DNA of 64,000 nt, from assembly GCA_963706905.1 (NCBI GenBank), contig CAVPNY010000019.1, positions 27,458-91,457 on the forward strand, written 5' to 3'. Position 1 is the first letter of the stretch. The number at the start of each line of letters is the position of its first letter. The notes under the pieces are model-generated. The model was not told the origin of the DNA. It did not search any database and saw only the letters and a program-made list of their open reading frames with translations. The translations under genes and the position numbers were made by a program. This DNA is from an uncultured Chloroflexia bacterium (GTDB taxonomy: Bacteria; Chloroflexota; Anaerolineae; Anaerolineales; UBA4823). Below, piece after piece: positions 28,319 to 42,994 of this stretch.

Positions 28319-29326
28319 TCACTCACTGCTCCGCGCCACCTGGTCGACCCCGATGGCGATAAGCAAAACAACGCCGACCACGATGCTCTGCCAGAATACA
28401 CCTACCCGCGCGATGATCAGCGCATTCTGAACCAGTGACATAAACAGGACCCCCAGGAACGCCCCGGGGATGGTACCTACACCGCCAGACAGGCTGGCCC
28501 CACCCAGGATGGCCGCCGTGATGGTGCGCAGCTCGGCTCCCACTCCGGCCAGGACCACGGCATTACTCAGCCGGGAAGCCAACAAGGTGCCTGCCAATCC
28601 AGCCAGCGAGCCCATGATGATAAAAGCATATAAAATCATGCGCCCAACCTTGATCCCGGCCAGGTCGGCTGCCGCTGAATTGCTGCCAATGTAGTAGAAC
28701 TGCCGGAAGAAACGCAGGCGAGTCATGCCGAACCAGGCCAGCAGCACCACCACAGCCATCACCCAGAATGGAGATTGCAGCCCAATGAACATGGTTTGCC
28801 CGTAAACCCGAAAGGCGTGAGGTAGATTGGCTTCCCCTCCCATCGATACGAGCTGCGTGACGCCGCGCAGGATGCCGGCCATCGCCAGCGTGGTAATCAG
28901 CGCATTGATGCGCAGCTTGGTAACGATGAAGCCATTGACCGCCCCGACCACTGAGCCGGCCGCGATGCCGATCAAAAACGAGGGAAAAGCCGGCACGCCC
29001 ATATCATTCACCAGCACGCCTGCCACAATGCCGCTAAATGCCAGGATGGATCCGACAGACAGATCAAACACACCGCTCACCAGCAGGATCATCATGCCTA
29101 CGGTCAGGATGCCTCCCTGGGCTGTATCCAACAAAACCGCAGCAATGTTGGCAGGTTGCGGGAAGGACTCCGGGTATACGATCGTCATCCAGGCGATTAA
29201 GACTACATTGAGGCCGATCAGAATCAATGGCCGGTCCTGGGCCAGGCGAATGGCTACCCTTTGGAGGTTGCTCCTTGAAGAACGTTTCTTAGGCTCATCT
29301 GATGCCGCGTCGACCATGGATCCCAT
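28319..29326 (-). CDS. Sugar ABC transporter permease (RbsC/AraH-like)
   Basis: 335 aa with ~9-10 TM helices. The motifs GGFDLSVGS-like (GVFDLSVGSILAF) and INALITTLAM are typical of ribose/xylose-type permeases. Confidence 0.85.
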   Translation of the reverse strand: MGSMVDAASDEPKKRSSRSNLQRVAIRLAQDRPLILIGLNVVLIAWMTIVYPESFPQPANIAAVLLDTAQGGILTVGMMILLVSGVFDLSVGSILAFSGIVAGVLVNDMGVPAFPSFLIGIAAGSVVGAVNGFIVTKLRINALITTLAMAGILRGVTQLVSMGGEANLPHAFRVYGQTMFIGLQSPFWVMAVVVLLAWFGMTRLRFFRQFYYIGSNSAAADLAGIKVGRMILYAFIIMGSLAGLAGTLLASRLSNAVVLAGVGAELRTITAAILGGASLSGGVGTIPGAFLGVLFMSLVQNALIIARVGVFWQSIVVGVVLLIAIGVDQVARSSE

Positions 29327-29626: not shown

Positions 29627-31057
29627 CGGTGATTACCCATAAGTCACCATGCAGTAAAGAGTTCGTGAGGGAAAGGTGAAATTGCGACATAGGACAAGGT
29701 TGCAGTTGTCAAGAAAACGGCGCTGATGCCACGCAATACAATGTAAGGCCCATCCCGATCCGTTTTACGGCCGAGTTTGCCGCCCAACTTACGCAACCAG
29801 TAGACCGCCTTGCGTGGCCAATGTTGCATGAGATGAAAGACAAACTGAGCGGCAGCCAGGACTAAGGCGAACAGGCGGCGCATGCGCTCAAGGGTCTGGA
29901 CGCGCAGATCTTCTACATCCAAGCCCTGTTCTTGGTCAAAGCGATAGCCATGTTCGATCTTGCCGCGCAAGCGCCAGTCGGAGTAGATTTGTAAGGCATC
30001 GGCTTCAGAGCCGATGGGCACATTGGTGATGAGGACGGCATTGCGATTTTCGAGGTCATTGTGAGCAACCAAAACAGACAAAGGCTGATGAGTACCAGGT
30101 AAGCGGATGGTGAACCAACCGGCCTGAATGGTGGCCAGACGGGTTTTACCAGCGTGATGAAAGACAGCCTGGTAAGAGGTAACCCAGGGAACGCTATCCA
30201 CCAAGTCTTGTAAGTGTTCGGTTTCCCAACGATCCAGGCGATCATTGTAGACTTCAACCAATCTTTCCAGGTGGCTGGCCACAATAACAAACTCGCAGTT
30301 GGGTTGGTTCATCCAGGCAAACACTTTTTGGTCATCTCCACCAGAGTCCATGACAAAGCGGATGCGCAGAGCAGGAAAAACCCAGCGGGTCGTTCGAATG
30401 GCGCGTTGAATTTCTCGATTTTGACTGAGGAAATCGGCCGTTTTGTACGAAAACCAGTTTGCATAACAGATGCCAGGCACACATGTATTCACCACACTGG
30501 CTGTGATCGCTGGATAGCCTTTTGCCAGACGTTTTTCACCGTCCAGGTTTGGCGGTGTGCTCTTGTACACCGTACTGACCCCTTCCAGCTTCTTTGTGTA
30601 AGGTTTCTCAAAATTCACTGGGTCAATCGCCACGACTACATAATTGGGGTTCTCTGTCCGCACGGTTTTCTGCGCAATGCGATACAACCCTTTGTACAAA
30701 TGGTGGTGGTTGAAACGCTTGTTCTCCAGAAACCGGTACACCCGCTTTGCCACGGCCCAGCAATCTGCCTCCACTCGCGAAGCGCTGCGTGACATCGCTG
30801 CGATCACGGGTGTCTCGGTTGCCAGAATGTTCTGTACACTCATGCAAACGACATCGCTCAGACGCTTATCCGGCAAGGTCGTTGCCATTGGTTCTGTAAA
30901 TTCCCTGATCTCAGCCTGTAATTTTGCGACAGGCAACTTGGCAAGAATCTCAGACAGTGCTATATTCAGCATGGCTCCATCTCCTAGGTGAAATGTTGGC
31001 AAACAATTCATACCACAGGTCGGTGGAGCTTACTGCATTAATTGTGGGTAATCACCG
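29627..31057 (-). mobile_element. Intact insertion sequence (1431 bp, IS4-superfamily-like DDE transposase; family tentative)
   Basis: Terminal inverted repeats CGGTGATTACCCA (29627-29639) and TGGGTAATCACCG (31045-31057), with further similarity inward (..ATGCAGTAA). Flanked by the 10-bp direct repeat CCCTGCTGTG. A single 455-aa ORF fills the element. Confidence 0.9.
29644..31011 (-). CDS. DDE transposase (IS4-like)
   Basis: 455-aa ORF between the IRs. Candidate catalytic segments are VVAIDPVNFEKPY, FVMDSGGDDQKVF and a C-terminal W..R...E-containing block (YSDWRLRGKIEHGYRF). Confidence 0.8.
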   Translation of the reverse strand: MNCLPTFHLGDGAMLNIALSEILAKLPVAKLQAEIREFTEPMATTLPDKRLSDVVCMSVQNILATETPVIAAMSRSASRVEADCWAVAKRVYRFLENKRFNHHHLYKGLYRIAQKTVRTENPNYVVVAIDPVNFEKPYTKKLEGVSTVYKSTPPNLDGEKRLAKGYPAITASVVNTCVPGICYANWFSYKTADFLSQNREIQRAIRTTRWVFPALRIRFVMDSGGDDQKVFAWMNQPNCEFVIVASHLERLVEVYNDRLDRWETEHLQDLVDSVPWVTSYQAVFHHAGKTRLATIQAGWFTIRLPGTHQPLSVLVAHNDLENRNAVLITNVPIGSEADALQIYSDWRLRGKIEHGYRFDQEQGLDVEDLRVQTLERMRRLFALVLAAAQFVFHLMQHWPRKAVYWLRKLGGKLGRKTDRDGPYIVLRGISAVFLTTATLSYVAISPFPHELFTAW

Positions 31058-31154: not shown

Positions 31155-31955
31155 ATGAGCGACGATTATGTTGTTGAAATGAAAGGCATCTCCAAGCACT
31201 TTGGCGCAGTCCAGGCTCTCAACAACGTCAACCTGGAATTGCGCCGGGGTGAAATTCTTGGACTGGTCGGTGACAATGCGGCGGGCAAGTCCACGCTCAT
31301 GAAAATCCTGGCGGGGGCATACATGCCTGACAGCGGCGAGATCGTCCTCGATGGGAAACCGGTACAAATTGAAGGGCCGCGCCATGCGCGTGAGCTGGGC
31401 ATTACGATGGTGTACCAGGACCTGGCGTTGTTCAACAGCATGGATGTTGCCAGCAATATCTTCGTTGCCAGGGAGCCCACGACCAACGTGATGGGCCTCA
31501 AGCTATTCGATCGGAAAGAGATGCGCGCGCAAGCCAAGAAATTGCTGGCGAAGATGAAGGTCGACATCAGCTCCGTTGACCTGCCGGTTGCACGCATGTC
31601 TGGCGGCCAGCGACAGATGATCGCGGCTGCCAGAGCCCTGGCGTTTGAAGCGAAAATCCTCCTGCTGGATGAACCCACGGCCGCCCTGGGGGTGAGGGAA
31701 GCCAACACCCTGCTCAACCAGATCAAGGAGTGGAAGGCTCAGGGCCTATCCATCATCCTGATCACCCAGCGCATTCCCGATGTCCTGGCTGTGGGGGACC
31801 GCGTCATGGTTCTAAAAGGCGGGGTTCGGCAGGACATACTGGATGTCGCCAATTGCCATCTGGATGATATTGTCAACTTGATCGTGAAAGGACGTACAGA
31901 TCCGAAGGAGCCAGCTGCCGAAAAGCCAGACATCGAATTTCTGTCTTTCGGGTAG
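31155..31955 (+). CDS. Sugar ABC transporter ATP-binding protein (single NBD)
   Basis: Walker A GDNAAGKST, signature MSGGQRQMIAAARAL, Walker B ILLLDEPTAAL. GGAAGAGG lies upstream of the ATG. It is divergent from the permease/SBP genes and separated from them by the IS. Confidence 0.9.
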   Translation: MSDDYVVEMKGISKHFGAVQALNNVNLELRRGEILGLVGDNAAGKSTLMKILAGAYMPDSGEIVLDGKPVQIEGPRHARELGITMVYQDLALFNSMDVASNIFVAREPTTNVMGLKLFDRKEMRAQAKKLLAKMKVDISSVDLPVARMSGGQRQMIAAARALAFEAKILLLDEPTAALGVREANTLLNQIKEWKAQGLSIILITQRIPDVLAVGDRVMVLKGGVRQDILDVANCHLDDIVNLIVKGRTDPKEPAAEKPDIEFLSFG

Positions 31956-33324: not shown

Positions 33325-36300
33325 ATGACTCAACCTGCCTCACCACCTGATGATCAAGAAGCCATTGATGCCCGCGGTTTGCAGGGCTTTATCGACCAGC
33401 CCTCTGGCCCGGTGGAGCAGGTCTTTGGCGATCGAGTCGCCGGCGACAAGGTCGCGGGCGATAAAATCGCGGGCGATAAGATCGCCGGTGACAAGATCGT
33501 CACCGGCGGCGGTGATTACATCGTCTACAACATCACCACCACCGTGGTCAGCGAGGCGCAGGTCAAGACCATTGAAGACCTGCCGCCCGAGCCTGGCGAG
33601 GCGCCCTTCCAGGGCTTGCAGTACTTCGACGAATCCGACGCCGAGCGCTTCTTTGGGCGCGAGGAGCTGACCGCCCGTATCGTCGGCCGCCTGGGACGGG
33701 CACCTTTCCTGGCGGTGATCGGCGCCTCCGGCAGCGGTAAATCCTCGCTGCTGCGCGCCGGGGTGATCCCTGCCCTGCGTCGCGGAGAGCGCCTGGCAGA
33801 CGGCAGCCTGCCCCCTACCGACAGCCCGAAGTGGGCTATCCAGGTTATTACCCCCACCGCTCACCCGCTGGACGCCCTGGCGGCGGCCTTGTTGCCCGAG
33901 CCCGAGCAACTGGCGGCCATGACCGCCTTGCGCGAGCAGCTTGCCCAGCACCCTGAGATGTTGACCCAGGCGGTCAGCCAGTACCTGGCCCGGCATAAAA
34001 ATCCGCACCTGCTGCTCTTCGTGGACCAGTTCGAGGAGCTCTTTACCCTGTGCCGCAAACCAGACGAGCGCGAAGCCTTTATCGCCAGCCTGCTTTCCGC
34101 GGCTGCGCCGGATGAGACTGGCAATCTGAGCCTGCTGATCGCCCTGCGCGCGGATTACTATGCCCAGGTGGCGCAGATCGAGCGCCTGCGCGAGGCCGTC
34201 TCGCAGTCCCAGGAGCTCATTGGGGCGATGAGTCGCACCGAGCTGGCGCGCGCCATCGACCGTCCATTGGCCCTGGGAAACTGGCAGATCCAGCAGGGGT
34301 TGATTGAGGTCATTCTGGGTGATATTGGATACGAGCCCGGCGCCCTGCCGTTGCTTTCGCATGCCCTGCACGAGACCTGGCTGCGCCGCCGCGGCCGCAC
34401 CCTGACACTATCTGGCTATACCGAGGCAGGTGGGGTGCGCGGCGCGGTCGCTCAGACCGCCGAGGCGGTTTTCCAGCGCCTGCCAGCCCTGCAGCAGGAG
34501 GTAGCGCGCAGCATTTTCCTGCGCATGGCCGAAGTCGGGCAGGATTCGCAGGATACGCGCCGCCGGGCGACTTACGACGAGCTGATCACGCGCTCGACCG
34601 ATGAGCTGGTGATCGACGCTGTGGTGGGCGTCCTGGCGGATGCCCGTCTGGTGACTACCGATACCCTGCAGCCGGGCGGCGAGAAAATTGTCCAGGTGGC
34701 GCATGAAGCCTTGATCCGCGAGTGGCCCACCCTGCGCGGCTGGCTGGATGAGGACCGCGAAGGTCTGATCCTGCACCAGCGCCTGGCGGAAGCCGCCGAT
34801 GATTGGTCCAAGCTGGGGCGCGATCCGGGCGCGCTGTACCGCAGCGCCCGATTGAAAGCTGCCCAGGATTGGGCGACCGCCCATCCTAAGGCGATCAGCG
34901 TGCTGGAGGAGGAATTCCTGAAAACCAGCCAGCAGGTTGCCGATCAGGAAGCCGCGGATATCATCCGTCTCAGACGCGCCCGGCAAATCCAGCGCATTAT
35001 GATCGGGGTGACTATTGCCCTGGTCGCAGCAGTGGCTTACCTGGCCTATACCTTCTTGATCAAGAAGACGCCGGCAGTCATGGATGGTTTCTTCAATGTC
35101 GCTATCGCTTCCGCCCCTGGACCAGCCACAACCACTTCGGACGCCAATCCGGCTTTTACGGAGGCGCTGTACACCAACATGCGCCGTGCGCTGGGCGACA
35201 ATTCCAACATTCTGGTATGGCGCGACAGCCCCGAGCTGCGCGACCTCAATGTAACTATCGGGTCTGTGGAGGGGGAAACCCCCGAGGCGCAGACTCAATC
35301 GGCCGATCAAATGGCAGCACGCTTGCATGCCAATATGGTGATCTATGGCAGCCAACAGAGCGGCCCGGATGGGCGTGAATTTGTCTTGCAGTTCTACCTG
35401 GCGCCTCGCGAAGGAACCGACTATGCCGACATCCAGGGCGGGTTTGACCTGGGCTGCCACGCTTCGCTGGAGGATCAGCCTGGATCCTTTTATATTATCC
35501 CCACCGAGCTGGAATCGTATTTTGGCGGCTGCGCCAGCGCGCTGGCCCAGATCGCCCTGGGCTTGAGCGAAGCTGAACTGGGCCATTCACTCGAAGCGCT
35601 GGAAGCCTTCCAGAAAGCAAGGGATTATTTTTCGACCTCTGAGGTGATCCAATTCCTGATCGGGCGTGAATACCTGTTCCTGGTCGACCGCGAATCGGTG
35701 TTGAATTTCGTCCGGGATGAATTCTACGCCCAGGCTGCACAGGCTTTTACCGTTTCGGCTAATCTCAATCCTGGATATCCCCGCGCCCATATCGGGCTCG
35801 GTTCCGTTTACTTTAAACAGGCGCGTGACCTGGAGGACAAATCGGTTTCTGATTTTGGAGCCGGTGTCAGCTCCCCAGAGCAGTTAGCCCAAGCCTTGCA
35901 GCTCGTCGATCAATCCATCGCCGAATACGGTAAAGCCCTGGAATTAGCCGCCAATGACCTCTCGGGTATCCCGGTTGACAGCGTAGCCCGCCAGGGCCAG
36001 GGCAATGCCCTGAAACTAAAAGGCGAGATCCTGTTAGATCAAGGCCAGACTGAGCAGGCCCGGGGGTATTTCGAGCAGGCGGTGCAGGCTTTGGAACCCA
36101 CGATCGGGTCTTTCGAACAGTCTGGTCAAGCCCGCTACCTGGCGCAGACTTACGAATATCTGGGCCGGGCTTATTTATATCTGGGATCGGCTGATGAGCA
36201 GGTGCAGGCCTATGCTGATGGGTTGGTTGCTTACCAATCAGCCCTCAACTATTTCGACCTGTGCATCGCGCAGGCGGAGTCGACCCAGGACTTTATTATT

Positions 36301-36384
36301 AAAACGAATATAGTGGCAGAAGCCTGCCAACTCAACCGCGAGTTTGTGCAGGAGCGCATTGCACTATTAGGAGGTACGCAATGA
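33325..36384 (+). CDS. STAND-like P-loop NTPase with N-terminal 5-residue repeats, one TM helix and C-terminal TPR-like domain
   Basis: GDRVAGDKVAGDKIAGDKIAGDKIV repeats, Walker A GASGSGKSSLLRAGVIPAL and Walker B LLLFVDQFEELF. Conserved blocks are shared with 16199..18220/13702..16329 (PLLSHAL.ETW.RRRGR.L.L.GY; QDTRRR; VAHEALIREWP.LR.WLDEDR). TM helix IMIGVTIALVAAVAYLAYTFLI. The C-terminal ~250 aa consist of TPR-like helices. Confidence 0.85.
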   Translation: MTQPASPPDDQEAIDARGLQGFIDQPSGPVEQVFGDRVAGDKVAGDKIAGDKIAGDKIVTGGGDYIVYNITTTVVSEAQVKTIEDLPPEPGEAPFQGLQYFDESDAERFFGREELTARIVGRLGRAPFLAVIGASGSGKSSLLRAGVIPALRRGERLADGSLPPTDSPKWAIQVITPTAHPLDALAAALLPEPEQLAAMTALREQLAQHPEMLTQAVSQYLARHKNPHLLLFVDQFEELFTLCRKPDEREAFIASLLSAAAPDETGNLSLLIALRADYYAQVAQIERLREAVSQSQELIGAMSRTELARAIDRPLALGNWQIQQGLIEVILGDIGYEPGALPLLSHALHETWLRRRGRTLTLSGYTEAGGVRGAVAQTAEAVFQRLPALQQEVARSIFLRMAEVGQDSQDTRRRATYDELITRSTDELVIDAVVGVLADARLVTTDTLQPGGEKIVQVAHEALIREWPTLRGWLDEDREGLILHQRLAEAADDWSKLGRDPGALYRSARLKAAQDWATAHPKAISVLEEEFLKTSQQVADQEAADIIRLRRARQIQRIMIGVTIALVAAVAYLAYTFLIKKTPAVMDGFFNVAIASAPGPATTTSDANPAFTEALYTNMRRALGDNSNILVWRDSPELRDLNVTIGSVEGETPEAQTQSADQMAARLHANMVIYGSQQSGPDGREFVLQFYLAPREGTDYADIQGGFDLGCHASLEDQPGSFYIIPTELESYFGGCASALAQIALGLSEAELGHSLEALEAFQKARDYFSTSEVIQFLIGREYLFLVDRESVLNFVRDEFYAQAAQAFTVSANLNPGYPRAHIGLGSVYFKQARDLEDKSVSDFGAGVSSPEQLAQALQLVDQSIAEYGKALELAANDLSGIPVDSVARQGQGNALKLKGEILLDQGQTEQARGYFEQAVQALEPTIGSFEQSGQARYLAQTYEYLGRAYLYLGSADEQVQAYADGLVAYQSALNYFDLCIAQAESTQDFIIKTNIVAEACQLNREFVQERIALLGGTQ

Positions 36385-36806
36385 GAAAAAAGCAAACCTA
36401 TCGTCTATTGATCTGGTCCCTGGTGGTTGTCCTGGCGCTGCTGGCTTGCGGTATCTCGGTTGATACCGGTTCCGACACACCCGAAAACCAGGCGCCTCCC
36501 ACCAGCACCAACCCCGCGCCGGTGGAGCCCAGCCCGCTGCCGCCCACCGATACCCCTCCCGCGGCGCAGCCTTCCCCAACCATCCAGCAAGCTGAGGCGA
36601 CCGAGCCTCCCGCGCAGCCCTCACCGACCGACGCCCCACAGTGCACGGTGCTCCAGGATCTTTTCTTCCGCTCTGGCCCTGGCACTTTATACGATCCACC
36701 AGTGCGCGCCCTGGAGCCGCAAACCGTGCTTTCCCGCAGGGCTATAATCCGGTGGGTGTGCCCGGCGGTTCCTGGGTGCAGGTGCGCGAGCCGCAGGCCA
36801 ATCTGA
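36381..36806 (+). CDS. Lipoprotein, N-terminal fragment (signal/lipobox, Pro-rich linker, start of SH3-like domain); same gene as 36641..37300
   Basis: The ATG overlaps the stop of the NTPase gene (ATGA at 36381-36384). Signal peptide plus lipobox (ALLACG). After ...CTVLQDLFFRSGPGTLYDPPVRALEPQTVL the frame is lost at the T-run near 36730-36732. Confidence 0.75.
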   Translation: MRKKQTYRLLIWSLVVVLALLACGISVDTGSDTPENQAPPTSTNPAPVEPSPLPPTDTPPAAQPSPTIQQAEATEPPAQPSPTDAPQCTVLQDLFFRSGPGTLYDPPVRALEPQTVLSRRAIIRWVCPAVPGCRCASRRPI

Positions 36807-37300
36807 TCGGCTGGGTCAGCGCCGGGGAGCAGTACGTCGACTGCAATATCGATCTCACCAGCCTGCCCTCCGTGGCGGTGGAGCCGCCGCCGCCGCCCGC
36901 CCCGCCCAAGACCGGCAACTCAGCCCCGGATGGCTCCTTCCCGGATAACCTGATCTTTACAGAGGATTTCGATCGGGATTATCTATACCGCCTGTACGCC
37001 CACGATATCAACGTCGGCGAGGGAGATGGCGACGGGATTGCATCGATCGAGTTCACCATCCGCGATGCGGATGGCAATGAAGTCCATTCGAATAGCGAGG
37101 AGACGCCCGGATTCTGTGTCTTTGGCGGCGGCGAGCCGAATTGCAACACCTGGCTGCTGGAGGACTACGTCTACAAGTGGCCTTCCACGGGTATTCCGGT
37201 CGAGGATGGAGTTTATGAGCTGCGGGTGCGCGTGATCCTGGACGACGACTCCCAGGGCGATGGCAACTGGAGCTACGATCTCACTGTAAGTTTGGATTAG
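36641..37300 (+). CDS. Lipoprotein, C-terminal fragment (rest of SH3-like domain, Pro-rich linker, beta-rich C-terminal domain)
   Basis: The real coding part begins ~36733 (FPQGYNPVGVPGGSWVQVREPQANLIGWVSAGEQYVDC) and directly continues the upstream fragment if one T is added. It ends ...GVYELRVRVILDDDSQGDGNWSYDLTVSLD. Confidence 0.75.
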   Translation: MHGAPGSFLPLWPWHFIRSTSARPGAANRAFPQGYNPVGVPGGSWVQVREPQANLIGWVSAGEQYVDCNIDLTSLPSVAVEPPPPPAPPKTGNSAPDGSFPDNLIFTEDFDRDYLYRLYAHDINVGEGDGDGIASIEFTIRDADGNEVHSNSEETPGFCVFGGGEPNCNTWLLEDYVYKWPSTGIPVEDGVYELRVRVILDDDSQGDGNWSYDLTVSLD

Positions 37301-37314
37301 ATTGTATGTGAATC

Positions 37315-37693
37315 TTACAATCCCAACTGGTTTTGGATGAAGGATCTAATGGCCTGAACGGATTTAAACGCAGCCCTGGCTTCTGATTTTTCGGCGCTCT
37401 CTCCTGGGTAATGAAAACGGACTGCGTATCCTTCCAGGATGCTGAGATCTGGATTCAGGAAAGCCAGCGAAGGATCTTGTTTCAAGCAAAGCGCGAGCAA
37501 ATCATTGAGGTTGTGCGTCTTTGGGATATTTTGCCCAGCTTCCTGGAGCAGGGCCTTCAAATACTTCTCAGCAGTCTGTTGGGCATGAAAACAGACCGTG
37601 TCATAATTTGGAGATTCCTGGCTCTAAGCTCTCTCTGCGCAGTTTTAAAGTCCCCTCCGCTTTTTCCACCCATTCAAGCGTCAGGGGATTCAT
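37315..37693 (-). CDS. HEPN-domain protein (toxin-like partner of the MNT), interrupted by two 1-nt frameshifts
   Basis: Three-frame reconstruction gives MNPLTLEWVEKAEG / DFKTAQRELRARN / SPNYDTVCFHAQQTAEKYLKALLQEAGQNIPKTHNLNDLL...GYAVRFHYPGE. Frame changes fall at the G-run 37652-37655 and at 37615-37616. The ORF track shows only 37315..37560. Confidence 0.7.
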
Positions 37694-38035
37694 AGAGGAC
37701 AACGCCGCGTTCGACGATCTCTTTTAAAAAGAATCCCCCAATGAAATTCTCTGTTTCAGTCTTTCAGGGGTATATACGATGATGTCTAAACCAAACAGGG
37801 GGTTGAGCGACTGACGGATTTCCAGTGCTTGATGAATTTCTCTAAGCTGAGTGTTCATGATCACCAGGATATCCACATCGCTCTCGGGTTTAGGCTCCCC
37901 ATATGCGTAGGAACCGAAGAGAATGATCCTTTCCGGGTGGAATTGCTCGGCGATGCGCCTGGTTAATTCCTGGATGACACGATCTGATATCTTCGTGCGC
38001 TGATCGATGGTCGGGACTTCAAGCAGGATATCCAC
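37674..38035 (-). CDS. Minimal nucleotidyltransferase (MNT, antitoxin-like), 1-nt frameshift near its 3' end
   Basis: RIILFGSYAYGEPKPESDVDILVIM is the GS-x10-DxD nucleotidyltransferase motif. The ORF stops at 37724 (…LGDSF-stop). Adding one T to the T5 run (37726-37730) gives ...DSFLKEIVERGVVLYESPDA-stop at 37674, which overlaps the HEPN start. Confidence 0.8.
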
Positions 38036-38075: not shown

Positions 38076-38876
38076 TTATTTTCCCCACTTCTTTAACAGA
38101 TCCTCACCCTTGTAAAACTCCCAGGCCAGCACAAACAAGGCTACCTGCGAGAAAGCCAGCCAGACGAAAATGACGGTCAAGATAACCGCGGCCCAATCCA
38201 GCCAGCCAGGGATGTTTGCTTGCAAATCCTGCACGCGCCCCTGGTAGGCGCTGATCTTTACAGTATAGCTGTCTAGCATGGCCAGGTTTTCCTGGATGGT
38301 TGTCTCCCAGTTGGTGAAGCCGGACGAGAAAGTCTCCACCGTCTCCTGGGTCAGCGTGGAGACATCCTGCACCTTCTGTTTGGTCTCCAGGATCTGGCTG
38401 TTCAGGTCGGCCACGTTTTGGGCGATCTGGTCGATGGTCTCCACACCGGGGATCTCGATATTGACTAGCGGCAGGTCGTTGAGCGATTCAAGCGATTCCT
38501 TGAAAGATATGAATTTATCCCGAAAGCTGCTCACTGTCCCGGCGGCCTGATCCAGGATCGGCGTCAGCGTGTTTTCTACTTTGGCGACCACCTCCGCCAG
38601 CACCTGGGTGTCCTCCATCGCATCCAGCCCGATGGCTTCGAGAGCCGTCTGGAAAATATCGATCTGCGCCTGGGCTGATTCCAGATTTTCCTGGGCCGTC
38701 TGCAGATTCGTTTGTGTCAGGGTCAGGTCGGCCTGGATGGCGCCCAGCTCTGTCATGGCCTGGTCGGTGAAGCGCGCATTATATACCCAGGCTGCGGCGA
38801 TGCCTGCCAGGCTGGCGATAAAGAAGAAGACGCTCAGGATCAGCAGGATCAGTCCCAGGATGCGTTTGTTTTTCAT
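38076..38876 (-). CDS. Membrane protein with long coiled-coil ectodomain/loop, function unknown
   Basis: 266-aa ORF with an N-terminal TM helix (ILGLILLILSVFFFIASLAGIAAAW). A ~190-aa Q/E/L/T-rich helical region follows, then two C-terminal TM helices (AAVILTVIFVWLAFSQVALFVLAW). Confidence 0.6.
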   Translation of the reverse strand: MKNKRILGLILLILSVFFFIASLAGIAAAWVYNARFTDQAMTELGAIQADLTLTQTNLQTAQENLESAQAQIDIFQTALEAIGLDAMEDTQVLAEVVAKVENTLTPILDQAAGTVSSFRDKFISFKESLESLNDLPLVNIEIPGVETIDQIAQNVADLNSQILETKQKVQDVSTLTQETVETFSSGFTNWETTIQENLAMLDSYTVKISAYQGRVQDLQANIPGWLDWAAVILTVIFVWLAFSQVALFVLAWEFYKGEDLLKKWGK

Positions 38877-39049: not shown

Positions 39050-39301
39050 TTAGCGGAAGATCATCGGCAGCAGGAGTATCTCGTCTGCCTCATTCGGATC
39101 GATGATGATCACCGCGTCGCTGAACGGGCCGACTTTGCCGTCCCGGTCCACGATCGCCACCCGCCAGTAATAGGTGCGCCCGATCTCGTAGTTTTTCGTG
39201 GGGGTATAGCGGGTGTTATCCGTGGTGATCGAGTTCGTACATCGGCGAGAAGGTAGCATACTGGGATACCTCCAGCTTATAGCTGGCTGCCCCGAGAACA
39301 T
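39050..39301 (-). CDS. Giant YYWRV-repeat surface protein, fragment 3 (C-terminal)
   Basis: The real coding part starts ~39233 (SITTDNTRYTPTKNYEIGRTYYWRVAIVDRDGKVGPFSDAVIIIDPNE...). It continues fragment 2 (...YKLEVSQYATFSPMYE) after a frameshift near 39229-39236. Confidence 0.7.
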   Translation of the reverse strand: MFSGQPAISWRYPSMLPSRRCTNSITTDNTRYTPTKNYEIGRTYYWRVAIVDRDGKVGPFSDAVIIIDPNEADEILLLPMIFR

Positions 39302-41234
39302 AAGGCGTCACCCCATCCCCCGCTGTCCAGACGAAAGTGGGCGTCTTGGCGATGCGGTTGCCGTTTTTCGGCGAGAGGGGCAGCGCCACCGGATATTGTT
39401 TGGTGAACACCGCCGCCGGGCTGTATTCGCCCAGCTTGTTCATCCCGTCGATCATCGCCACCCGCCAGTAGTAGGTGCCGTCATCGTAGCCCTTCATGGG
39501 GGTCCAGCAGGACTGCTCGGTCTCGGCTTGCTCGTAGATCACCGAGAAGGTGGGATCGCCCCGGCTGACCTGCATGCGGTACTTGTAAGCCGCCAGCACC
39601 GGCGTCCCACCCGATTCCTTGATCAGCGGCTCCCAGCAGAAAGTGGGCGCGCTGCGCACGGCGTGACTGGGGTCGGCGTCGTTTGGGGTCAGCCCCTGCG
39701 GGTAAGGCAAGGCCAGTGTGAATTCCTCCTTGGGGCTCCATTCGTTAATAACCTGGTTATTTTGGTAGCGCGTGACCCGCACCCGCCAGTAGTAGCTGCC
39801 GTTGTTGAGCGTGCTGGGGTGGGTGTAGGAATTCTGCGCGGTGCGGATGGCGATATCCGGGGAGCCAAAGTTGGGATCGTTATCCACCTGCAGGTCGTAA
39901 TTCATGGCGCCTTCGACAATATCCCAGGAGAAACTTGGGGTGGCGAAGTCGACCGACTCAAGCAGGTTGGTAGGGATAAAGCCCTTGCGCTCGAAGCGCC
40001 ATCCCTGGCTCCATGCTCCGTACATCGTGCAATTCGTTAAGTAGCAAGGTTGGACTCGCCAGTAATAAGTATTGTCTCCTTCAAAATCGGTCGGCCAATG
40101 GTTGCTGGTAGAAGCATAATATGAGCCGGTGGATTTAACCGTGAATTCTGCCACCTGGGTGGTGAACAGCGGGTCCAGGTAGACGCCCATCCTGGCTCCG
40201 TTCCAGGGGGAGGCTGGAGCTGAGCCGGTAGGGTTGTCCCATCGGAAAGGCGGGACGAAGGGGAAAGCTTTAGGCTCTCCAACGGTGTAATTGGCAGGCG
40301 TGACCAGGTTCACCCGTTCGGAGACGCTGGTGAAGCGGCTGAGAGGCCCGCTGCCGGGTGCGAGTGGATCGGAGGGCACGCTGTCCTGCGGCGTGCCGCT
40401 GCCGGACGGCAGGCTGAAGAGTGACAGGGCGTAGCTGCCGGTGTCATCCTGCATGCCAATGGCGGTGTTGGGCACCCTGAACTCCACATATTTACTCACA
40501 TTATCCCAGGTCAGATCGCCGCCAATGCTGCTCAGTAATTGCGGGCTGTTCCAACCGCTGCCGTTCCAGGCGTAAACGGCGGTCTGGCTGGCGGAGAAGG
40601 TTTGGCTAGTCTGGTTGATGTAGATGGCGAACTCCGGTTGATGGGCCGGGATGGTGGTGACGGTGTAACCCCGAGCGTCAAACGTCGCCCCGGAGTCGTC
40701 TGTATGGTCCACGTCGAGGTACAGTGCGTAGGTCATGTTCGCCGCGGCAGTGTTAGCGTTAAATCCGAAATACCAGTAATGGGTATCCTGAGCAGCTTGC
40801 AGGGTGGTCAGCTCGAAGTTGTTATCCGCTGTGTCGTCTGGATCGTCAGCGATGATCAGCTGGTTGGAGGCGTCGCCCAGCGTGCGTTCGTCGACGCGTT
40901 CGCTCTGGGAGGCGATCTGGAAGCGGCGCACCTCACTCCAGGTTCCCAGCGGGCTGCCGCTGGAGCGTGCCCGCACCCGCCAGTAGAAGGTCCCGTAATC
41001 GGTGCGCTCTAACAAGCGTTGGGCCAGGCTGGTGTCTGGTGAGTACACCGCATAGGGGACAGTGGCTGTAACCAGCCTGGTAGTGAAGGTCGAATCATCG
41101 CTGATCTGCACCTCGTAAGCGTCGGCGCCGTCCTTCGGCCACCATTCCAGCAAAGGCGTGGTTTCGACGATCTCCGCGGCGGGTGCCGGGCGAAGCAGCT
41201 GCGGCGCTGAGTTGGTCTTGGGAGTTAACCCCAA
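39216..41234 (-). CDS. Giant YYWRV-repeat surface protein, fragment 2
   Basis: 672-aa ORF with repeated ~85-100-aa modules (W.....GA..Y..Q(V/I)S.D..F..........T.....(L)..G.YYWRV(R/Q/A)). It continues fragment 1 after a frameshift near 41270-41275. Confidence 0.8.
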   Translation of the reverse strand: MGLTPKTNSAPQLLRPAPAAEIVETTPLLEWWPKDGADAYEVQISDDSTFTTRLVTATVPYAVYSPDTSLAQRLLERTDYGTFYWRVRARSSGSPLGTWSEVRRFQIASQSERVDERTLGDASNQLIIADDPDDTADNNFELTTLQAAQDTHYWYFGFNANTAAANMTYALYLDVDHTDDSGATFDARGYTVTTIPAHQPEFAIYINQTSQTFSASQTAVYAWNGSGWNSPQLLSSIGGDLTWDNVSKYVEFRVPNTAIGMQDDTGSYALSLFSLPSGSGTPQDSVPSDPLAPGSGPLSRFTSVSERVNLVTPANYTVGEPKAFPFVPPFRWDNPTGSAPASPWNGARMGVYLDPLFTTQVAEFTVKSTGSYYASTSNHWPTDFEGDNTYYWRVQPCYLTNCTMYGAWSQGWRFERKGFIPTNLLESVDFATPSFSWDIVEGAMNYDLQVDNDPNFGSPDIAIRTAQNSYTHPSTLNNGSYYWRVRVTRYQNNQVINEWSPKEEFTLALPYPQGLTPNDADPSHAVRSAPTFCWEPLIKESGGTPVLAAYKYRMQVSRGDPTFSVIYEQAETEQSCWTPMKGYDDGTYYWRVAMIDGMNKLGEYSPAAVFTKQYPVALPLSPKNGNRIAKTPTFVWTAGDGVTPYVLGAASYKLEVSQYATFSPMYELDHHG

Positions 41235-42994
41235 TGAGAGGTCAAAGCGCGCCAGCCAGATCTGGCTCCATTCGCCGGTTTCGTGCCAACATTATTCAAA
41301 GCGCGCACCCGCCAGAAATAATCCTGGCCAGCCGCGGGCGTGAAGGGGTTGCTGGAGGTCGGAGCGGCGTGTGTGCTTTCAGTATCGACTTCCCAGACAA
41401 TATCCGCGGGATCAAACAAAGGATCGGTGCAAACCTGCAGGCGGTAAGCGTCGGCATACGTGCCTCCTCCTTCTGCAGGCGAATTGGTCAAGCGATGCCA
41501 GTAAAACACAGGCAAGGCCACGGTGCGATCGACATGCGGCTGCATGGTGACGCTTTGGTCAGGTGCTGGGAAATTATTCGGTTCGTAATAAAAGTCCGGG
41601 AAGACTGGATCCGGGGCGATGGCATCAGCTGAGGAGTCATAAGAGAAAACCAAACTCTCTTTACCCTGTTTACCACTCCCGTCAAAAGGAGTAACTCGCC
41701 AATAGTAGATCTCATCGGTTCCAATATAATTCGTCGGTGTATAAAAGGTGTTTGAAGTATATGCTGGCAAATTAGAAATCGGATAGGGAGGCACAAAATC
41801 CTGTTCGTCGTCAAGCTCAAATTTATAATAGCTGGCGCCTGGCACCGGGCTCCATGAGAAGGTTGGGATGCGCACATGCTGGTAGTTGTTGACCGGGGTA
41901 AGCAGCACCGGGCGGATATACCATTTCTTGATGAACGACCACACTGCGCTCCAATCGGAGATCGAGTTGCCCGAGTAGGTGCGCACCCGCCAGTAGTAGT
42001 TCTTGTCATTGGGCAGGGTGACCAGCGGCGTGTAGGTGGTGTTACGCGTATCGATGGTGGTAGTATCGGCATTAAAGGTCGGGTCGGTGGAATACTGCAG
42101 CTTGTAGAACTGCGCCCCGCGCACCGCCTTCCAGCGAAAAGTGGGGGTGAAAGTCGGATTAGAGAAATTCTCCGGCTCGATCAGCTCCGGGATTTGATTG
42201 TAGCTGACGTTGAAGGAGCGTACCTCGCTGTAGGTGCCCTCGCGGCTCTTGGGGTCGAGCGGGATCACCCGCCAGTAGAATGTGCCGTTGGCCAGCTTGA
42301 GCGCTGGCTGGTGGGATGTCGCCAGAGTGGTTTGATTGTAGACCAGGGCGCTGAAATCGTATGAGGTGGCGATTTGCAGGCGGTAGAGGCCCGCGCCGAT
42401 CACCGCTGCCCAGCTAAACGTAGGCGCATCGAAGAATTCCAGGCTGGCGCCTTCCTCAGGGGACTGTAATATGGGCAAATTGTCCGGGCTGGCCCACTGG
42501 CGGGTGAAGAACCCGATATCGGAGTAATTACCGGCAGCCGGAGCATCCACCCGCACCCGCCAGTACCATAAACCATCATTGAAATTGGCCACATTGGGCG
42601 GCGTGAAGCGTGTTTGCGGGGTGGTGAACTCGAACTTGACGCTGAAAGCGATATCCTGGCTGATCTGCAGGCGGTAATTGGTGGCGTCTTTCACCGCGCT
42701 CCAGGCAAATTCGGGAATGGCAACCGGCGGTTGGGCAGTTTCACCTGTCCCGCTGGCGGTGATAGTGACGCTGTTGGCGGGTTGGAACAGGGAGGGGGCC
42801 TCTGCCGCAGAAATCGGAGTCTGCATGAACGGCGCCAGGAAGCTGCTCAACAGGGTCAGGATGATCCCAAGGCTGATGAAGAAGCGCCTTCCAATGGAAA
42901 AGTTTCTTTGTCGTCGCATAGTGGTAATCAGTGTTTGACTGCTCATTTTTTCCCCTTGAATGGGATGCGTCTGGGATTGGGTACCGTTTTTCAT
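41225..42994 (-). CDS. Giant YYWRV-repeat surface protein, fragment 1 (N-terminal, signal/TM anchor)
   Basis: N-terminal hydrophobic segment (FFISLGIILTLLSSFLAPF), then five modules ending LWYWRVRV, FYWRVIPL, YYWRVRTY, YYWRVTPF and YFWRVRAL. Confidence 0.8.
   Translation of the reverse strand: MKNGTQSQTHPIQGEKMSSQTLITTMRRQRNFSIGRRFFISLGIILTLLSSFLAPFMQTPISAAEAPSLFQPANSVTITASGTGETAQPPVAIPEFAWSAVKDATNYRLQISQDIAFSVKFEFTTPQTRFTPPNVANFNDGLWYWRVRVDAPAAGNYSDIGFFTRQWASPDNLPILQSPEEGASLEFFDAPTFSWAAVIGAGLYRLQIATSYDFSALVYNQTTLATSHQPALKLANGTFYWRVIPLDPKSREGTYSEVRSFNVSYNQIPELIEPENFSNPTFTPTFRWKAVRGAQFYKLQYSTDPTFNADTTTIDTRNTTYTPLVTLPNDKNYYWRVRTYSGNSISDWSAVWSFIKKWYIRPVLLTPVNNYQHVRIPTFSWSPVPGASYYKFELDDEQDFVPPYPISNLPAYTSNTFYTPTNYIGTDEIYYWRVTPFDGSGKQGKESLVFSYDSSADAIAPDPVFPDFYYEPNNFPAPDQSVTMQPHVDRTVALPVFYWHRLTNSPAEGGGTYADAYRLQVCTDPLFDPADIVWEVDTESTHAAPTSSNPFTPAAGQDYFWRVRALNNVGTKPANGARSGWRALTSHWG

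Follow-up and report, generated by a model that had tools for sequence, protein, structure and literature searches.

A 64,000-nucleotide stretch of DNA from an uncultured Chloroflexia bacterium (GenBank assembly GCA_963706905.1, contig CAVPNY010000019.1, positions 27,458 to 91,457 of the forward strand; hereafter the window) carries two overlapping genes, one for a predicted membrane-spanning NTPase of the STAND class (signal transduction ATPases with numerous domains), here called the receptor, and one for a predicted lipoprotein, here called the co-receptor (Table 1). A first-pass annotation, made from the letters alone, had described a 1019-aa open reading frame (ORF) with GDKxA repeats, Walker A and B motifs and conserved blocks, and all of these were recovered from the ORF list, the Tandem Repeats Finder (TRF) output, the motif positions and the match to the Pfam family PF20703. 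This match has an E-value of 6.7e-127 and a score of 424.7 bits against a gathering cutoff of 27.1, it covers profile positions 1-378 of 379, and the conserved blocks PLLSHALHETW and VAHEALIREWPTLRGWL lie inside it. The receptor ORF has no breaks and every motif is in place; besides the NTPase match it gives an E-value of 5.6e-211 with a local hidden Markov model (HMM) of the ectodomain. The relatives L001 and L002 keep both Walker motifs. As judged from these profiles, the ORF is a full-length nSTAND1 NTPase.

Table 1. Positions of the two genes, their parts and the adjoining genes in the window.
Feature	Position	Strand	Basis
Receptor gene, 1019 aa	33325..36384	+	ORF; N-terminal motif, nSTAND1 NTPase, one transmembrane helix, external alpha/beta and TPR parts
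N-terminal cytoplasmic coupling motif region (predicted), residues ~15-76: DARGLQGFIDQPSGPVEQVFGD(R/K)xAGDK... TGGGDYIVYNITTTVV	33367..33552	+	Matches to partner proteins
15-nt tandem repeat encoding GDKxA units	33437..33499	+	TRF: period 15, 4.2 copies
nSTAND1 NTPase module, residues 94-501	33604..34827	+	Pfam PF20703
Walker A, GASGSGKS, residue 133	33721-33744	+	Motif position
Walker B, LLLFVDQFEE, residue 229	34009-34038	+	Motif position
Single transmembrane helix, residues 558-579, N-terminus inside and C-terminus outside (predicted)	34996..35061	+	Hydropathy, family conservation, positive-inside statistics
Membrane-proximal external alpha/beta domain, residues ~590-714, beta-alpha-beta-alpha-beta-beta-beta	35092..35466	+	AlphaFold2 model
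External TPR-like superhelix, residues ~727-1016, 11 helices	35503..36372	+	AlphaFold2 model, Foldseek
Lipoprotein co-receptor gene, 306 aa once repaired	36381..37300	+	ORFs, lipobox, homologues, model of P0018
Single-base deletion splitting the lipoprotein gene	36730..36731	+	DNA alignment with L068 and L069
HEPN, broken by two 1-nt deletions	37315-37727	-	Pfam HEPN E 7.5e-10, C-terminal part only; frame analysis
MNT, intact	37724-38035	-	Pfam NTP_transf_2 E 2.6e-12

The transmembrane (TM) segment is the only strong hydrophobic peak of the receptor (Kyte-Doolittle 2.1), and in all full-length family members one strong helix (Kyte-Doolittle 2.1-3.0 over 19 residues) lies directly N-terminal to the ectodomain. 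Lysine and arginine together average 2.9 residues on its N-terminal flank and 1.2 on its C-terminal flank (n=163 proteins, Wilcoxon p=6e-20). The AlphaFold2 model of receptor residues 579-1019 (pLDDT 87, pTM 0.87) contains an alpha/beta domain followed by helices resembling tetratricopeptide repeats (TPR). A TolB-N/LpoB-like fold was considered for the alpha/beta domain, but a profile of 23 diverse sequences gave no relative in the PDB (best E 0.67, IF-3) or in Pfam. Foldseek with the ectodomain model returned CTPR, OGT and LGN at probability 1.0 with E-values down to 2e-7, and matches to the whole model were to TPR proteins only. The TPR_2, TPR_12 and TPR_16 profiles score about 19 bits on the receptor, under their cutoffs of 27-33, and its homologues carry many precomputed TPR matches. 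In the TPR part, Cys980 and Cys1001 are invariant across the family. The conserved TM helix, the charge asymmetry, the cysteine pairs and the secreted lipoprotein partner agree with each other, and together they support a predicted topology in which the NTPase is cytoplasmic and the TPR domain external, on the same side as the lipoprotein. The earlier description of exactly one hydrophobic helix followed by TPR-like helices is borne out by hydropathy and the structural comparisons, and its placing of the NTPase and the TPR part on opposite sides of the membrane is supported.

The stop codon of the receptor gene overlaps the start of the lipoprotein gene as ATGA (36381-36384); a GGAGG precedes this ATG by 6 nt. 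The lipoprotein gene of the window runs over two frames (36381..36806 and 36641..37300). Where the window reads GTGCT-TTCCC, the intact relatives L068 and L069 (blastn identities 96.2% and 92.3%) read GTGCTCTTCCC and GTGCTCATCCC, so that one C is missing, and homologues are uninterrupted across the site (...TVLIPLGYNPVG...). Restoring one base gives a protein of 306 aa, the length of the homologues; intact 306-aa copies are known at 97% and 95% identity. The repaired protein consists of a signal peptide, a lipobox with Cys23, a Pro-rich linker, an SH3b-like barrel, a poly-Pro hinge and a beta-sandwich, and the model of the 97% identical homologue P0018 (pLDDT 87) has the same order, with a signal helix and a disordered linker. 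The lipobox (LLAC) of the window is MRKKQTYRLLIWSLVVVLALLAC followed by G; alignments of 40 and of 55 homologues show its cysteine to be invariant, all 45 of 45 receptor-lipoprotein pairs have it, and two further cysteine pairs are conserved. Through this lipobox the product is predicted to be anchored to the membrane. Foldseek with the lipoprotein model matched the SH3 domain of 2krs (probability 1.0, TM-score 0.68 relative to the target); at E<=1e-3 there was no match, the hits being generic Ig/FN3/MD-2-like sandwiches and one SH3b domain. Matches to the SH3_3 family (PF08239) are precomputed on many homologues; the two window halves gave none, because the frameshift splits the SH3 domain. 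The ATGA overlap, lipobox, Pro-rich linker, SH3-like part and beta-rich C-terminus of the first-pass annotation therefore stand, whereas the gene is not one intact ORF as had been assumed.

The lipoprotein profile, run against 185,579 species-representative genomes, matched 53 loci, without exception in metagenome-assembled genomes (MAGs) of Chloroflexota (Anaerolineales, Caldilineaceae, Ardenticatenaceae, Promineifilaceae and Thermoflexales), and about 60 loci, likewise all from Chloroflexota, were compared overall. Upstream DNA is available at 54 loci, and at 52 of them local HMMs place a gene encoding the TM helix and ectodomain immediately before the lipoprotein gene; the other two are weak partial matches. 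The lipoprotein gene is directly downstream in five of five loci reached through the ectodomain. Of 45 pairs, 36 have an overlapping stop and start (in 22 the overlap is the 4-nt ATGA, in 9 it is 1 nt) and five others are separated by 20 nt or less; the genes flanking the pair change between loci. The idea of a coupled device had been made to depend on the lipoprotein being a conserved neighbour of the receptor, and it survived, since the lipoprotein directly follows in nearly every locus. By gene order, the co-receptor appears to be obligatory for the ectodomain gene.

Additional features were seen in some of these loci. In L025, L026, L028, L035, L038, L046, L051 and L053 a further gene downstream of the lipoprotein encodes its C-terminal beta-sandwich alone, possibly a second external component in loci of the Ardenticatenaceae/Promineifilaceae type. 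Some receptor genes are interrupted, which may reflect error, frequent inactivation or both: in L002, a short-read assembly, TAG stands for a conserved Gln codon (1448-1450), and the receptor genes of L001, L012, L018, L023 and L059 are frameshifted, L012, L018 and L023 being MFD MAGs. Outside the Chloroflexota, a plasmid of Gloeothece verrucosa PCC 7822 (L064; NC_014502.1, 3215-6804) encodes a caspase-nSTAND1-TM protein followed by an overlapping gene whose annotation is ABC transporter substrate-binding protein; going by annotation, this cyanobacterium too pairs a membrane nSTAND1 receptor with a secreted partner.

The ectodomain is not confined to nSTAND1 proteins. A word-indexed search had returned 17 matches and made it look very rare, which was overturned by an exhaustive profile search giving 469 cluster representatives at E<=1e-30, most of them with a short cytoplasmic tail. 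Among the loci we distinguish class A, the nSTAND1 receptors (about 30 loci, the window included), class B, receptors with a short tail (about 15 loci), and class C, receptors fused to CHAT (3 loci; PF12770, E 1.4e-32). Other receptors begin with EAD7 (E 1.9e-17 and 5.6e-13) or the bacterial death-like domain bDLD1 (E 6.7e-8). One class B subtype has a helical N-terminal domain (LNILREREAKYGGNAPLELLNQI) with no Pfam match and no copy in neighbour proteins. From these comparisons, the TM helix, ectodomain and lipoprotein are best described as a cassette inherited jointly behind nSTAND1, CHAT, EAD7 or death-like adaptors or short tails. CHAT, EAD7 and death-like modules have been recognised as a signature of conflict or apoptosis-like systems in multicellular bacteria (Kaur et al., PMC7159879, PMC8195603).

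The first-pass annotation recognised no effector module in the receptor and left its output open. Relatives indicate otherwise, as the N-terminal motif of the receptor recurs in proteins encoded nearby. In 16 class A loci a protein of about 127 aa is encoded just upstream of the NTPase and opens with the N-terminal motif of the NTPase (GD.F.LSGDFRGAILNIKSTL), and an HMM of these small proteins matches the NTPase N-termini exactly at the motif positions. The motif types are conserved across class A N-termini. When the variant ISGNI.NS..N.KS replaces SGDFRGA, it does so in both the NTPase and the small protein of the locus, and motif identity between the two is 0.63 within a locus and 0.51 between loci (p=5e-5). 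Among genome relatives of the window L006 is the closest; there the lipoprotein gene is followed by a gene for a caspase (Peptidase_C14, E 6.8e-11) that continues with DTGGGAFIRGNVHTGGGAFVGRDQ and then a helical tail; the DTGGGAFIRGNVHTGGGAFVGRDQ segment is 79% identical over 24 aa to the N-terminus of the L006 NTPase (E 8e-12). In class B, the gene upstream in L044, L049, L056 and L057 encodes CHAT, the motif GDVIIG..GAGA..VAIGK.ITQ and a tail (in L005 the motif and tail only), and the receptor tails of these five loci carry the motif of their partner just before the TM helix. In L071 and L073 other motifs are shared in the same way.

A search with the N-terminal segment of the window receptor led to the protein P0287, and scanning metagenomes with P0287 and the L006 tail led on to L070. 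Both proteins have the end of a caspase domain, followed by DASGSKGFVYKPTGPVEQVFGDKVTGDKIAGDKIGGDKIDTGGG and a tail homologous to that of L006 (E 1e-22). The motif region of the window is 56% identical to these partner proteins over 55 aa (E 1.6e-13), and the tailA HMM matches the window receptor at residues 30-75 (E 4e-9). At L070, an nSTAND1-like gene 2 kb downstream opens with DASDSQGLVYKPTGPVEQVFGDQVAGDKIAGDK, where the window has DARGLQGFIDQPSGPVEQVFGDRVAGDKVAGDK when aligned by eye. The GDKxA units number about 0-1 in L061, 2 in P0285, 4 in P0286 and 5 in the window, with variation also at L059; the copy number thus differs among close orthologues, and the repeat part of the motif therefore expands and contracts quickly. 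As the receptor motif of the relatives recurs in neighbouring caspase, CHAT or small helical proteins, a caspase or CHAT protein is the likely output.

The nSTAND1 clade was defined by Kaur, Iyer, Burroughs & Aravind 2021 (eLife 10:e70394; PMC8195603) and belongs to predicted counter-invader systems. The window receptor is like other members in its full-length profile match, its Walker motifs, the TM helix right after the NTPase followed by repeats, and the multicellular habit of the bacteria; both the clade and the relatives of the window module are associated with EAD, death-like and caspase modules. A plasmid tblastn search for nSTAND1 relatives gave 185 records, mainly from Streptomyces, Rhodococcus and Nostoc, and six of six distant nSTAND1 proteins sampled have a hydrophobic helix at the same place, with an Arg-rich stretch before and WD40 or other domains after it. 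A string search of the 2021 supplement (PMC8195603) found 'nSTAND1+TM' 412 times, 'nSTAND1+TM+BetaPropeller' 278 times and 'nSTAND1+TM+TPR' 22 times, as well as 'EAD7+nSTAND1+TM+FGS' in Chloroflexi; membrane topology of nSTAND1 is not discussed in the main texts of Kaur et al. The receptor is a canonical nSTAND1 protein and its layout was too readily called undescribed: as far as the strings in these tables go, the membrane-spanning layout is catalogued but uncharacterised. The module differs from the clade in its specific alpha/beta and TPR ectodomain, in having a short repeat motif in place of a fused N-terminal enzymatic effector, and in the coupled SH3/beta-sandwich lipoprotein that always accompanies it. 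The same string search found no 'SIG+SH3' entry in the architecture tables, and text searches of the literature turned up no account of the pairing with a lipoprotein. Within what these tables and searches cover, three things appear to be new: the obligatory lipoprotein partner, an ectodomain cassette that occurs in receptors of the nSTAND1, CHAT, EAD7 and short-tail kinds alike, and a motif connecting such membrane receptors with caspase or CHAT partners.

The motif sharing resembles the BASS (bacterial amyloid signalling sequence) motifs described on CHAT, TIR and hydrolase effectors beside NLRs (NOD-like receptors) in filamentous and multicellular bacteria (Dyrka et al., bioRxiv 10.1101/2020.01.06.895854). 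As in such pairs and their fungal HET-s/NWD2 paradigm, an N-terminal motif of about 20-35 aa rich in G, D, N, V and I, with pseudo-repeats, stands on an NLR-like NTPase and recurs on a protein encoded nearby, including CHAT and caspase proteins, and the bacterial hosts are filamentous. Our receptors differ in being predicted to span the membrane with an external sensor, and some carry the motif directly before the TM helix with no NTPase. The BASS motif lies at the extreme C-terminus of the Bell protein, whereas here it is N-terminal on the small partners and precedes the helical tail on the caspase partners; the window has the motif on the receptor but no partner. Avs and other bacterial NLR-like defence proteins are likewise built of a sensor made of repeats, a STAND NTPase acting as the switch and an effector for the output, but here the sensor is predicted to lie on the outside, a separate protein carries the effector, and PADLOC gave no Avs match. 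The earlier statement that no characterised system has this layout holds in that neither PADLOC nor NCBIfam gave a significant family match, NCBIfam having no meaningful family for either the receptor or the lipoprotein. Animals have transmembrane pattern-recognition receptors that work with co-receptors, such as TLR4 with MD-2, and Drosophila PGRP-LC with its cytoplasmic RHIM-like motif. The analogy, and it is no more than that, lies in an ectodomain (solenoid or ligand-binding) that works with a small beta-sandwich co-receptor, in the single TM helix, and in a homotypic or amyloid-like motif on the cytoplasmic side by which death or protease machinery is recruited. The beta-sandwich of the lipoprotein has weak generic Foldseek matches to MD-1/MD-2 (TM-score about 0.4), and the likeness is offered as functional analogy.

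It seems, with a probability that we put at roughly 55%, that the two genes form a trans-membrane NLR-like receptor of filamentous (Anaerolineales-like) Chloroflexota that signals through its motif to a caspase-like partner. The TPR ectodomain and the lipoprotein would jointly bind an extracytoplasmic cue, plausibly a cell-wall or envelope-derived ligand because of the SH3b domain of the lipoprotein. Binding would be passed through the TM helix and license NTP-dependent oligomerisation of nSTAND1, the oligomers would cluster the N-terminal motif (in the window the GDKxA-repeat / VEQVFGDK...TGGGDY segment), and the clustered motif would recruit or template the matching motif on the caspase-like partner, as in BASS/HET-s-type NLR-effector pairs. 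Activation of the partner could then lead to proteolysis-driven arrest or death of the cell within its filament. We infer this mechanism from gene linkage, domain swaps and motif sharing. More tentatively, the whole family may consist of surface pattern-recognition receptors with co-receptors that cluster an amyloid-like motif, directly in the short-tail forms or through nSTAND1 oligomers, and so activate caspase or CHAT proteins; this would be a counterpart of PGRP-LC/Imd or TLR-type death signalling in which damaged or infected cells are sacrificed.

Several observations weigh against the receptor reading. The lipoprotein gene of the window is frameshifted, and regular expressions, blastp-short, tblastn and HMMs detected neither another ORF bearing the motif nor a partner tail in the 64 kb. 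The close relative L061 has no adjacent partner either, and a motif-sharing neighbour is missing in about a third of class A loci and in the class B subtype with the helical N-terminus. The within-locus excess of motif identity is not significant within one motif type (p 0.09 and 0.10), and the co-variation therefore reflects a few coordinated type switches. The small upstream proteins had been considered as homologues of the caspase tails; HMM support is weak (E 5e-4 to 7e-3), and the idea was given up for want of hhalign support (probability 2%). Contact between the ectodomain and the lipoprotein is predicted from gene linkage. In PADLOC the receptor has only P-loop-level matches to mad3 and mad8 (E 1.7e-4 and 7.6e-4; about 20-45 residues) and the lipoprotein none, and the neighbours in the window belong to ordinary metabolism (ABC sugar transport, SDR dehydrogenases, racemase, hydrolases), with no defence island.

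Some of these points would also fit a window copy that is a non-functional relic, its lipoprotein inactivated, its effector lost and the locus decaying beside an insertion sequence (IS) element and a dead HEPN/MNT pair. We consider this a genuine possibility, though an improbable one. The frameshift stands where the 96%- and 92%-identical relatives are intact, the 64 kb hold no partner, an IS-like transposase lies 2.3 kb upstream, and other family copies contain the TAG or the frameshifts described above. The HEPN/MNT pair had been reported to follow the lipoprotein gene by 15 nt on the other strand; the strand was right and MNT is intact, but the gap between the lipoprotein stop and the HEPN stop is 14 nt (37301-37314, the genes being convergent) and HEPN is broken. 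Its ORF is an 81-aa C-terminal remnant with the N-terminal part in two other frames, after deletions that turn a G5 run into G4 and AATT into AAT. In the near-identical L068 the lipoprotein gene likewise adjoins a HEPN remnant, one that has lost a larger internal segment; as the gene is broken differently in the two, the HEPN toxin gene is decaying in the lineage. On the other side, the 1019-aa receptor ORF is entire with every motif present, and the frameshifted relatives are mostly MFD MAGs. All three breaks (one in the lipoprotein gene, two in HEPN) are single-base deletions within 1.1 kb, an indel pattern known from long reads. A further gene at 39216-42994 (minus strand) also seems split: two ORFs (672 and 589 aa), both with DUF4962 and Ig_Rha78A_N, overlap by 10 nt at about 41225-41234 and probably represent one surface protein of about 1260 aa split by an indel. 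The three deletions together with this split gene suggest that the window comes from an indel-prone (long-read) assembly, and real decay, especially of HEPN, could still have contributed. With no partner gene in the window and one nucleotide missing from the lipoprotein gene, the module may be incomplete here; this would not hold if the base was dropped in assembly and the partner is encoded elsewhere in the genome.

SH3b-type domains often bind peptidoglycan. The pair could accordingly be a housekeeping envelope module, in which the ectodomain and the SH3b lipoprotein take part in peptidoglycan or envelope assembly or surveillance and the NTPase serves as a regulatory switch that takes no part in conflict or cell death, a logic likened to that of TPR/lipoprotein regulators of wall synthesis. 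The SH3_3 matches of many homologues and the structural match to 2krs agree with this view, as do the metabolic surroundings in the window and the lack of a match to a known defence family, and some class B loci adjoin genes for PBP1-like, SurE and membrane proteins and have no motif-sharing partner. We nevertheless think such a role unlikely, since the receptor motif is present on caspase and CHAT partners, the flanking genes vary by locus, and several copies carry stop codons or frameshifts, which would be unexpected for an essential function. The same cassette is moreover fused to CHAT, EAD7, bDLD1 and nSTAND1, which are hallmark modules of conflict and cell death (Kaur 2020, 2021).

Two further explanations have little in their favour. 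The HEPN/MNT pair, at 14 nt from the lipoprotein stop, a junction that L068 shares, might be a third component or effector, but the orientation is convergent, HEPN is broken in both copies, and in the other loci (about 60) HEPN/MNT is absent beside the module and forms no recurring cluster, which makes this role extremely improbable. Classical Avs and NLR-like STAND proteins are cytoplasmic, and the topology here is a predicted one, so that the receptor might be wholly cytoplasmic with a hydrophobic segment that is no membrane helix and a lipoprotein that is an unrelated neighbour. This is very improbable in view of the hydropathy of the segment in each family member, the strong positive-inside asymmetry, the cysteine pairs invariant beyond the helix and the obligatory, translationally coupled secreted lipoprotein. 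The Kaur 2021 tables, as covered by the string search, also annotate TM at the same position.

Other genes around the module were noted. The IS-like ORF (29644-31011, minus strand, 455 aa) has a weak DDE transposase match (PF13701, E 0.002) and sits between ABC-transporter genes for a permease (28319-29326) and an ATPase (31155-31955); an IS element may have inserted into a transport operon here. At 38076-38876 (minus strand) a 266-aa protein has N- and C-terminal hydrophobic helices around a long coiled-coil-like region; it was assigned to no family and is not conserved beside the module.

The window holds one member of the family, with a lipoprotein gene that is possibly damaged and no partner nearby. 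Bacterial NLR-like (STAND) proteins are usually treated as cytoplasmic sensors of phage proteins, whereas in this module, with its dedicated lipoprotein partner, and apparently across much of the nSTAND1 clade, the sensor is predicted to face outwards. The swapping of one sensor cassette between cytoplasmic modules, together with the motif on nearby caspase or CHAT proteins, provides a testable wiring diagram for outside-in protease signalling in multicellular bacteria. If the receptor reading is true, amyloid-motif (BASS-type) signalling would extend from soluble NLRs to membrane receptors with a defined pair of ligand-sensing domains.

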